Origin: Escherichia coli
GTDB lineage: Bacteria > Pseudomonadota > Gammaproteobacteria > Enterobacterales > Enterobacteriaceae
Assembly (NCBI RefSeq): GCF_003334305.1
Contig: NZ_QOWS01000002.1
Strand: one strand, 5' to 3'
DNA: 64,000 nt
The position numbers were made by a program, and so were the translations under genes. This document shows positions 1,522 through 9,136 of this stretch, one piece after another (the first letter of the stretch is position 1; each line of letters begins with the position of its first letter). The notes under the pieces are model-generated. The model searched no databases and was not told where the DNA came from. It saw only the letters and a program-made list of their open reading frames with translations.

Positions 1522-2442
1522 TTAATAGCGTGAAGGAACGCCTTCCGGGCGTGTTTTAAAGCGACGGTGTAACCACATATACTGCTCTGGTGCCATCATG
1601 ATGCATTTTTCGACCACTTTGTTCATCCACGCGGCGGTAGTTTCGGCATCATCCAGTGGCGGAGAACACTCTGGCGGCAGCATAATCAATTGATACCCTT
1701 TGCCATCTGGCTTACGGCGTGGAACGAAGGGCACCAGACATGCGCCGGACATCCGTGCCAGCATCCAGGTTCCGGTCGTGGTCGCAGCCTGCTCAACGGC
1801 AAATAACGGGACGAAAACGCTTGAGCGCGGGCCGTAATCATGATCCGGTGCGTACCAGACCACTTCGCCTTTTTTCAGGGCTTTAATCATGCCTTTTAAA
1901 TCTTTGCGGTCGAGCATCGATTTATTTGAGCGCAAACGGCCCCAGGTTTGTAGCCAGTCAATCAGTGGATTATCGTTCGGGCGGTAAACGCCAATCCCCG
2001 GTTCCTGCATACCAAACTGCCGCGCACCCAGCTCCAGTGTCAGAAAATGGATGCCAACTAACAGGATGCCGCGTTTTTGCGCCTGCACGTCACGAATGTG
2101 TTCCATGCCGATCACTTCCGTCCAGCGGGCGATTCGGCGGTCCGGCCAGAACCACGCCATGCCGGTTTCCATCAGGCCCATGCCAACGGATTCGAAATTC
2201 TTCACCACCATTTTACGGCGTTCTTGTTCGCTCATTTCCGGGAAGCACAGTTCCAGGTTGCGATGCACAATTTTTGCGCGTCGTTTCATAAAACGTAACG
2301 CCAGTTTTCCTAATCCACAACCGAGGCGGTAGATAACCGGGTAGGGCAATTGCACGACTAACCAAAGTACGCCAATACCCAACCAGGTTAACCAATAACG
2401 CGGATGAAGCAGTGCGGTGGAGAACTTGGGTAGATTCGTCAT
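1522..2442 (-). CDS. lpxL: Lipid A biosynthesis lauroyl acyltransferase
   Basis: ORF 1522-2505 trimmed to the internal Met ([17 protein letters not shown]...), giving the 306 aa of LpxL/HtrB. Confidence 0.93.
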
Positions 2443-7423: not shown

Positions 7424-8470
7424 TTATTGTTTAACGGACCAGCGTACCGTTTCCCCGGCGAGGAATGGCACCAGGGTGTCATCAGTCAGTGCGATGCTTT
7501 CAGCAACCTGTTGCTCTTCACGTACCAGTTCGATGAATGTGTCGTTGACCGGCAAGCCATAGAACTGCGGGCCGTTTACAGAACAGAATGCTTCAAAGTG
7601 CTGCAGAGCATTCATCTCTTCAAAGACGGTAGCGTAACTGCCCAGCGCGGTTGGGGCGTTGAAGCAGCCCGCGCAGCCGCAACTGCTCTCTTTGCGATGA
7701 CGTGCATGTGGCGCAGAATCCGTACCGAGGAATACTCGATTAAAACCGCTGGCGACCAGTTCACGCAATGCCTGTTGGTGAATATTGCGTTTGAGGATGG
7801 GTAAACAATACAGGTGCGGACGCACGCCACCAACCAGCATATGGTTGCGGTTAAACATCAGATGCTGCGGAGTGATGGTGGCAGCCAGCCGTTCATTTCC
7901 GTCACGGACATAGTCGGCAGCATCTTTGGTGGTGATGTGCTCAAAAACGACTTTCAGCGCAGTCAGGCGCTGGCGCAGAGGTTCCATCACGCTTTCTATA
8001 AAGCGCGCTTCACGATCAAAAATGTCGATATCTGCATGTGTCACTTCACCATGCACCAGTAGCGGCATACCGATTTTTTCCATGCGCTCAAGTACCGGCA
8101 TGATTGCGTCAATTGACGTCACGCCGTGGCTGGAGTTAGTGGTTGCGTTTGCCGGATAAAGTTTTGCAGCGGTGAACACGCCTTCGTTAAATCCGCGCTC
8201 CAGCTCATTAGGATCCAGCGAATCTGTTAAATAACAGGTCATCAATGGGGTGAAATTGTGCCCGGCAGGTACGGCATCAAGAATACGTTGGCGATACGCC
8301 ACGGCAGCCTCAACTGTGGTCACGGGCGGAGCCAGATTGGGCATTACGATAGCCCGTCCATAAATTTCGCTGGTATACGGCACGACAGTTTTTAACATGT
8401 CGCCATCGCGGAGGTGAAGGTGCCAGTCGTCTGGGCGGCGGATCTTTAATACCTGGGATGGTGCAGTCAT
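7424..8470 (-). CDS. pyrC: Dihydroorotase
   Basis: 348 aa; [27 protein letters not shown] with the HxH metal-binding motif; matches PyrC. Confidence 0.95.
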
Positions 8471-8482
8471 TAATCTCTATGC

Positions 8483-8509
8483 TCCGGCTGAAGGGATGTT
8501 TTTGCCGGA
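8483..8509 (-). promoter_or_regulatory. pyrC leader hairpin able to sequester the Shine-Dalgarno (pyrimidine-responsive start-site regulation)
   Basis: Reverse strand UCCGGC...GCCGGA inverted repeat, whose 3' arm overlaps the GGAG Shine-Dalgarno just upstream of the pyrC ATG. Confidence 0.55.
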
Positions 8510-8521
8510 CACAAAGGATAA

Positions 8522-8537
8522 GCGGAAACGTTTTCCT
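8522..8537 (-). promoter_or_regulatory. PurR operator in the pyrC promoter
   Basis: Reverse strand AGGAAAACGTTTCCGC, a near-palindrome resembling the PurR consensus ACGCAAACGTTTGCGT. Confidence 0.6.
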
Positions 8538-8540
8538 TTG

Positions 8541-8569
8541 CACGAAAAATAAAGGGCGCGAATGCGCCC
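8541..8569 (-). terminator. yceB rho-independent terminator
   Basis: GGGCGCATTCGCGCCC hairpin on the reverse strand followed by TTTATTTTT, directly 3' of the yceB stop. Confidence 0.55.
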
Positions 8570-8575
8570 TCGTCA

Positions 8576-9136
8576 TTAATCCGTAAACGGAATGACAATT
8601 TCGCCTGGCTTCACTTCAATGCCTTTCGCCAGTTTTTTCGCCATTGCTTCGCCCTGACTGCCATCTTCGCGCAGGACGTAAGCAGGTTGCTGGTTAAAGT
8701 AATTGCGTAATGCCTGGTTCAAATAGGGAAGCAACGTTTGCATCACCGTTTGCATTTTTTCCGGTTGTACCGTCGCATCGACCACTTCCATCTCTTTCAG
8801 GAAGATCGCACCTTTTTCTTTATCAAACACGGGCAGCGCTTTCAGCTTCAGTTTCATGGTCGCTTTCTGACTACCGAACAGGGAGTTCATGTCCAGATTG
8901 GCGTCTCCGGTTAGGGTAACCTTATTCGGCTCTTCGCGACCAATTTGGCTGGTCAAGTTTGTCAGAACAATATGGGCGTCAGCCACGCCGGGTAAACCGA
9001 TATCTTTTGAGAAATTATTATGTTTCGCAAGCGACTGGTTAATTTCTTGTTCGGTGATGGTGTATTGGGTGAGTTGATTACAGCCAACGAGCAGGCCACT
9101 GACGATCAATGCAGCGGCAAATAAAAACTTGTTCAT
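8576..9136 (-). CDS. yceB: Lipoprotein YceB (DUF1439)
   Basis: ORF trimmed to MNKFLFAAALIVSGLLVGC... with an LVGC lipobox (186 aa); the upstream extension of the raw ORF would overlap grxB. Confidence 0.85.
   Translation of the reverse strand: MNKFLFAAALIVSGLLVGCNQLTQYTITEQEINQSLAKHNNFSKDIGLPGVADAHIVLTNLTSQIGREEPNKVTLTGDANLDMNSLFGSQKATMKLKLKALPVFDKEKGAIFLKEMEVVDATVQPEKMQTVMQTLLPYLNQALRNYFNQQPAYVLREDGSQGEAMAKKLAKGIEVKPGEIVIPFTD

Follow-up and report, generated by a model that had tools for sequence, protein, structure and literature searches.

The expression of pyrC is a classic case of regulation that works without a dedicated repressor: RNA polymerase senses CTP/GTP through the choice of the start site, and translation reads out that choice. 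At high CTP/GTP, CTP initiates the pyrC transcript 6-7 nt past the Pribnow box, and the resulting RNA has two C residues more than the G-initiated RNA made at low CTP/GTP (PMC6524683). With the extra C residues, the 5' end can fold into a stable structure in which the ribosome-binding site is hidden, and this start switch has been reported for both pyrC and pyrD in E. coli and Salmonella (PMC6524683). In the UTP-sensitive genes pyrBI, codBA, and upp, RNA polymerase also senses the nucleotide pools at initiation and no repressor protein is involved, but this is done by reiterative transcription and start-site switching that depend on slippage of the polymerase on runs of T or A in the initially transcribed region (PMC6524683). 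The start of pyrC (CCGG) has no such run, and the control is exerted on translation, by means of an RNA hairpin.

The gene is also among the targets directly repressed by PurR, a regulator of the LacI family whose motif is ACGNAAACGTTTGCNT (PMC3159470). The binding site (PUR box) lies between the -35 and -10 elements in 44% of the PurR-regulated promoters (PMC3159470). The box of pyrC resembles the operators of the pur regulon, such as those of purF and purHD, in this position and in being a 16-bp palindrome around a central CG, but it is a weaker match and the repression is modest. Two known targets, pyrC and glnB, went undetected in a PurR ChIP-chip analysis, and pyrC is absent from its 35 regions (PMC3159470). 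The gene pyrD likewise has a PUR box, CGGAAAACGTTTGCGT, which is nearer to the consensus and, unlike the one of pyrC, showed up in ChIP-chip (PMC3159470). A review likens the repression of pyrC by PurR to the three- to fourfold repression of carAB P1 by purines, far below that of the pur genes.

We analyzed the region between yceB and pyrC within a stretch of 64 kb of an E. coli genome (hereafter, the window). The annotated neighbors are mdtH-grxB-yceB-pyrC-dinI-bssS-solA, and every gene is on the minus strand of the window. The span given in the original prediction, 8471-8575, matches exactly the whole 105-nt intergenic region between yceB, whose TAA is at 8578-8576, and pyrC. A stretch of 501 bases around the feature has 100% identity to several RefSeq genomes, where the identical DNA is annotated "yceB: lipoprotein" and "pyrC: dihydroorotase", and it is present in all the complete E. 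coli genomes searched (5426/5426). Of 5425 E. coli genomes, 5213 carry the 115-nt control region with an identity of 99% or more. In strain IHE3034, the one variant we looked at, a single base is changed at 8574, outside all the elements. For the comparison across species, we ran a PyrC scan with one genome per species, which returned 80 loci, and used an alignment of 18 Enterobacteriaceae sequences (alignment A1). The elements of the region are the following, from yceB to pyrC:

8576 to 8578, minus strand: stop codon TAA of yceB, end of the lipoprotein CDS (open reading frame list; RefSeq annotation of identical DNA)
8552 to 8571, minus strand: stem-loop of the yceB intrinsic terminator, GAGGGCGC-AUUC-GCGCCCUU (terminator scan; folding)
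8571-8564 and 8559-8552, minus strand: the two arms of the terminator stem, GAGGGCGC and GCGCCCUU, with 8 pairs, of which 6 are G-C
8563-8560, minus strand: terminator loop AUUC (sequence)
8545 to 8551, minus strand: terminator U-tract UAUUUUU (sequence; terminator scan; spacing analysis)
8544, minus strand: single base C between the U-tract and the -35 hexamer (sequence)
8538 to 8543, minus strand: -35 hexamer GTGCAA, 3/6 to consensus (alignment A1; 17-nt spacing to the -10 hexamer)
8537-8521, minus strand: promoter spacer, 17 nt (sequence)
8522 to 8537, minus strand: PurR operator (PUR box) AGGAAAACGTTTCCGC, 16 bp (matrix scan; conservation; published PurR target)
8515 to 8520, minus strand: -10 hexamer TATCCT (near-invariant in A1; first 6 positions of the Rfam PyrC_leader model)
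8514-8504, minus strand: bases after the -10 hexamer, T1 T2 G3 T4 G5 U6 C7 C8 G9 G10 C11 (sequence)
8506 to 8509, minus strand: cluster of alternative starts U6/C7/C8/G9, numbered from the -10 hexamer (fit to the published description)
8504 to 8509, minus strand: 5' arm of the leader hairpin, UCCGGC (folding; CCGGC invariant in A1)
8489 to 8503, minus strand: hairpin loop, 15 nt in E. coli (alignment A1)
8483 to 8488, minus strand: 3' arm of the hairpin, GCCGGA, overlapping the Shine-Dalgarno sequence (folding; GCCGGAGC invariant in A1)
8482 to 8485, minus strand: Shine-Dalgarno sequence of pyrC, GGAG, 11 nt before the ATG (sequence)
7424 to 8470, minus strand: pyrC CDS, dihydroorotase of 348 aa, with the ATG at 8470-8468 (open reading frame list; RefSeq annotation of identical DNA)

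Compared with the described pyrC promoter-leader of E. coli K-12 (RF02372), this is the same locus, with the C start 6-7 nt past the -10 hexamer, the two extra C residues, and the hairpin that hides the ribosome-binding site, and nothing of substance differs. The pyrC gene of Salmonella Typhimurium and the pyrD genes of E. coli and Salmonella have the same C-or-G start that decides whether a 5' hairpin covers the ribosome-binding site (PMC6524683), although the Salmonella Typhimurium pyrC and the pyrD leaders belong to other genes and loci. We are confident, with a probability of about 0.95, that the 105-nt gap is the canonical and already known control region of E. coli pyrC, with three layers. 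The feature is known as a curated Rfam family, as a documented PurR target, and as textbook start-site-dependent control. The present data leave the picture of pyrC unchanged, and the small additions that we make are comparative.

What we report for this locus is the set of sequence elements with their spacing and conservation, the match to Rfam, and the prediction that the hairpin depends on where the RNA begins. The mechanism can be proposed as follows, taking from the literature the choice of start as a function of the nucleotide pools, the binding of PurR, and the effect sizes. Transcripts of yceB would stop at a strong intrinsic terminator 5 nt past its stop codon, and a weak sigma-70 promoter (GTGCAA, 17 nt, TATCCT) would act directly after the terminator. 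Since the spacer of this promoter is almost wholly PUR box, PurR bound to hypoxanthine or guanine would compete with RNA polymerase for it, leading to modest repression by purines. RNA polymerase would initiate at one of several neighboring bases, 6 to 9 nt past the -10 hexamer. When CTP is high, most transcripts would start at C7 and have CCGGC as their 5' end, which would pair with the GCCGG at the Shine-Dalgarno sequence and block the binding of the ribosome. When CTP is low and GTP is high, transcription would start at G9, and the RNA, having neither the two C residues nor the stable hairpin, would be translated.

The promoter itself is hard to recognize by its consensus. A consensus sigma-70 scan of positions 8300-8800 did not pick it up because the -35 hexamer has only 3/6 positions in common with the consensus, and we set its position by conservation and by the published register. 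The sequence has the adjacent C and G start positions 6-9 nt past the -10 hexamer (TATCCT, then TTGTG-U6-C7-C8-G9-G10), and this start register is common to 17 other Enterobacteriaceae sequences in A1. The block formed by the -35 hexamer, the PUR box, the -10 hexamer, and CCGGC...GCCGGAGC was found in all the loci with a yceB homologue directly upstream (17/17). These loci are from Escherichia, Citrobacter, Kluyvera, Pseudocitrobacter, Superficieibacter, Enterobacter, Cedecea, Mangrovibacter, a Klebsiella-labelled isolate, and several MAGs. In A1, there is little or no variation in the TGCAA core of the -35 hexamer, the core of the box (AAACGTTT), CCGGC, and GCCGGAGC; the -10 hexamer shows one substitution (TATTCT), and CCGGC occupies positions 7-11 past this hexamer throughout. 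The sequence upstream of the -35 hexamer is not conserved. The hairpin loop varies between 14 and 32 nt in Enterobacteriaceae, and its sequence is variable except for an A-rich start and for a TGACTGA-like block common to most long-loop genera. The U6-A pair is restricted to Escherichia and Citrobacter.

The terminator of yceB precedes this block. Its stem begins 5 nt past the TAA, on the same strand, and both the sequence and the scan identify it as a Rho-independent terminator. It folds with -15.2 kcal/mol (z = -4.3 relative to dinucleotide shuffles), and the scan of a 500-nt region revealed 2 terminator-like sites when 0.8 were expected. As modeled, the terminator is a strong one. It had been placed initially at 8541-8569: the element is real, but this range is 2 nt short on the 5' side and goes 4 nt too far on the 3' side, where it enters the -35 hexamer. 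We also considered that the terminator could be bidirectional, and rejected it: the hairpin folds on the plus strand, but it is followed by CGTCATTAAT, which is no T-tract, and there is no convergent gene.

The original prediction also held that termination and regulation share sequence space. The elements are indeed adjacent but they do not overlap, since the U-tract ends at 8545 and the -35 hexamer begins at 8543, which leaves 1 nt between them; the PurR box starts 7 nt past the U-tract. With C7 as +1, the U-tract covers about -43 to -37, and the stem-loop extends over about -63 to -44. Only the upstream contact zone of RNA polymerase (~-40 to -60) would fall on the DNA of the terminator. 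This position is where the alpha C-terminal domains normally contact the DNA, and upstream contacts could matter at a promoter with such a weak -35 hexamer (3/6). An alternative reading is a functional coupling of the two elements, in which the T-rich tail and the hairpin DNA double as a contact zone resembling an UP element. We regard this as unlikely. The 1-nt gap is found only in Escherichia and Citrobacter, whereas nine other genera have a recognizable terminator 9-28 nt or more away and an A-rich tract, and the T-tract of one E. coli strain is interrupted by an IS200C that parts the stem from the promoter. Since the abutment is limited to one lineage and an insertion sequence is found inside the T-tract, the packing looks like a lineage-specific compaction and not like a conserved dual-use sequence. 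The close arrangement of the two elements is of recent origin and has not been conserved.

Two observations can be added on this junction. Other Enterobacteriaceae (loci L005-L016 and L032; columns 1-12 of A1) have an A-rich tract, e.g., AAAAGAG or GAAAGGAG, at -38 to -46, i.e., where a proximal UP-element subsite would lie and where Escherichia and Citrobacter have the T-tract of the terminator. The strain with the insertion is E. coli 2022H048 (L082, NZ_AP029609.1, about 1790-2510), in which an IS200C with a frameshifted tnpA is inside the T-tract (window positions ~8548-8553). The stem and TTTATT stay on the side of yceB and TTTATTTTTC-GTGCAA on the side of pyrC. Despite the insertion, this strain retains an intact terminator stem, promoter, PurR box, and leader.

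The leader of pyrC was matched by the Rfam family RF02372 (PyrC_leader) with 68.7 bits, for a gathering score of 50 bits, along the entire model (1-50 of 50) and at 8520-8471 of the minus strand. The match stops at 8471, directly before the pyrC ATG at 8470. All matches to other Rfam families between 8000 and 9000 (E <= 10) were at chance level and well under the gathering scores. Across the species, the gathering score of RF02372 is reached only in Escherichia and Citrobacter. The family misses the forms of -10/CCGGC/GCCGGAGC with loops of 19-32 nt, located ~60 nt before the ATG, that we found in Kluyvera, Enterobacter, Cedecea, Mangrovibacter, and others (L005-L016, L032). In other words, RF02372 recognizes only the short-loop Escherichia/Citrobacter form of an architecture that is spread across the Enterobacteriaceae.

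The hairpin across the Shine-Dalgarno sequence is exactly where it was predicted to be (8483-8509). UCCGGC and GCCGGA are fully complementary, the 3' arm overlaps GGAG, and the share of the 5' arm that is present in the RNA is set by the start site. Folding the RNA from alternative 5' ends had been put forward as a check of the hairpin, and we folded the leader from each 5' end up to the ATG. The predicted energy of the hairpin was -9.7 kcal/mol for U6, -8.1 for C7, -5.0 for C8, and -3.0 for G9, and no such hairpin was predicted from G10 onward. The loss is thus stepwise (U6 > C7 > C8 > G9). The folding probability that the two G's of the Shine-Dalgarno sequence are unpaired was 0.00-0.01 in the C7 RNA and ~0 in the U6 RNA, and ~0.8 in the G9 RNA. 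A stepwise drop in predicted stability is what the published CTP/GTP-sensitive start switch requires. The Rfam match, the graded loss of the hairpin, and the agreement with the literature (PMC6524683) all support the claim that this is the known start-site-dependent pyrimidine control.

These predictions must be read with some care. When 20-40 nt of coding sequence were added (3' ends at 8450 and 8430), the Shine-Dalgarno sequence of the short RNAs, including that of G9, was paired with downstream sequence. The accessibility computed in silico varies with the length of the RNA that is folded, and the predicted contrast is cleanest for the leader alone. Judged by its energy alone, the leader hairpin deviates only mildly from expectation, with z = -2.3 (U6 RNA) and z = -1.7 (C7 RNA). 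Five of the six pairs never vary in 17 distinct sequences, and there are no two-sided changes; at the level of the alignment, such invariant pairs point to a constraint on the two arms without proving that they pair. The case for the hairpin is made by its position and conservation, by the match to Rfam, and by the published experiments, and not by its energy. The experimental work on the pyrC promoter-leader is reportedly that of Wilson et al. 1992 and of Liu and Turnbough 1994, as cited in the review.

A different structure is predicted for transcripts that start further upstream. An RNA including 8516 onward is expected to form a helix of 13 pairs with one bulge, between CUUUGUGUCCGGC and GCCGGA-G-CAUAGAG, with an energy of -17.4 kcal/mol (compared with -8.1 for the C7 RNA). 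This extended helix pairs 8516-8504 with 8488-8475 and spans the entire spacer between the Shine-Dalgarno sequence and the ATG. Its seven extra pairs (8516-8510 with 8481-8475) are found in E. coli and E. albertii and are absent in Citrobacter. One may speculate that the extended helix helps to silence stray read-through RNA. A doubtful scenario along these lines, based on the comparison of the sequences, is that a deletion in Escherichia/Citrobacter would have fused the T-tract to the -35 hexamer, with the loss of the A-rich tract, and that Escherichia would have gained the seven bases, resulting in a two-layer insulator. If so, RNA arriving from upstream would be locked in a -17 kcal/mol helix over the ribosome-binding site, and the insulator made of terminator and hairpin would offset the lost spacing. 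This would be a small, lineage-specific refinement of a known system.

It is very unlikely that the leader hairpin mainly guards against read-through, or stabilizes the mRNA, instead of sensing pyrimidines. RNA started upstream, such as the read-through from yceB, would then be silenced by the extended helix, and the predicted 13 pairs covering the region from the Shine-Dalgarno sequence to the ATG are consistent with it. However, the seven extra pairs are not conserved even in Citrobacter, little read-through is expected past a strong terminator, and the conserved register of CCGGC, 7-11 nt past the -10 hexamer, is already accounted for by the published mechanism. The idea of read-through is a supplement to the start-switch explanation and does not replace it.

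The PurR operator is also found exactly at the position predicted for it (8522-8537), where it takes up 16 of the 17 positions of the spacer between GTGCAA and TATCCT, and it is a documented PurR site. To score it, we used a position weight matrix made from the 28 ChIP motif instances that Cho et al. 2011 list (Table 1; PMC3159470), among which pyrC is not included. The box scored 17.0 bits. A PurR motif scan had been suggested as a further check, and the box came out as the best match in the 64-kb window on either strand; simulations of random sequences lead to an expectation of 0.23 sites this good per 64 kb, or ~4e-4 per 105 nt. Among the training sites, whose scores span 11.8 to 25.0 bits and mostly lie at 18-25, the box belongs to the lower third, and it differs from the motif at positions 2, 13, and 16. 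A search for perfect PUR palindromes with up to 3 mismatches gave no match because the pyrC box carries 4 mismatches. The PurR site of pyrC is weak, and its modest score agrees with the miss in ChIP-chip. According to the literature, PurR acts on pyrC as an established and modestly repressed target. Choi and Zalkin 1990 and Wilson and Turnbough 1990 are said to have described the binding of PurR and the purR-dependent repression by purines at pyrC.

The next matches to the PurR matrix in the window are at 1811-1826 (plus strand, 15.0 bits) and 29578-29593 (minus strand, 14.0 bits). Both are within long open reading frames, the former in one of 327 aa encoding an lpxL-like acyltransferase and the latter in one of 1061 aa, the size of rne. 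Both matches are likely to be fortuitous. Fur is also named as a regulator of pyrC in a network derived from RegulonDB. The best match to a Fur box between 8400 and 8640 had 12 of the 19 positions of the 19-bp consensus, and 114 matches in the window are as good or better. This match overlaps the PurR box and the -10 hexamer.

Outside the Enterobacteriaceae, the scores of the PUR box at pyrC are at most 7 in Yersinia, Serratia, Pectobacterium, Erwinia, Hafnia, Edwardsiella, and Photorhabdus. We found boxes upstream of pyrC in Vibrio hannami (L076; GCGTAAACGTTTGCGT, 21.2 bits) and in Photobacterium piscicola (L059; CAGCAAACGATTGCTT, 15.2 bits). They are 75-120 nt upstream of the gene and are separate from the enterobacterial box. 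In short, the enterobacterial box is confined to the Enterobacteriaceae, and those of Vibrionaceae are separate boxes.

The absence of pyrC from the 35 ChIP-chip regions, the lower-third score of the box with its departures from ACGNAAACGTTTGCNT at positions 2, 13, and 16, and the assignment of Fur to pyrC could suggest that the box is a chance palindrome or the site of another regulator, with PurR inactive here in vivo, but we find this extremely improbable given that the box has the best score of the window (0.23 expected per 64 kb), is kept at a fixed promoter spacing in 17/17 yceB-pyrC loci (the weakest, in Cedecea, with 11.0 bits), is lost as a unit in other families while Vibrio and Photobacterium have independent PUR boxes at pyrC, is backed by binding in vitro and repression in vivo cited in the literature, and faces no Fur box above background (best 12/19).

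A pairing of the CCGGC/GCCGG type is kept in Erwinia, Rosenbergiella, Serratia plymuthica, and Edwardsiella, and it is shifted in Photorhabdus. In Yersinia, Rahnella, Pectobacterium, Brenneria, Hafnia, and Acerihabitans, the start region carries CCCCGCCG, and its predicted pairing with the Shine-Dalgarno region is no better than in shuffled controls. The shift in Photorhabdus concerns the 3' arm of the leader, in which GGAGCCGG pairs with CCCGGCC. In three Photorhabdus loci (L023, L025, and L027; positions 1048-1783), 2-3 tandem tRNA genes with identical scores replace yceB directly upstream of pyrC.
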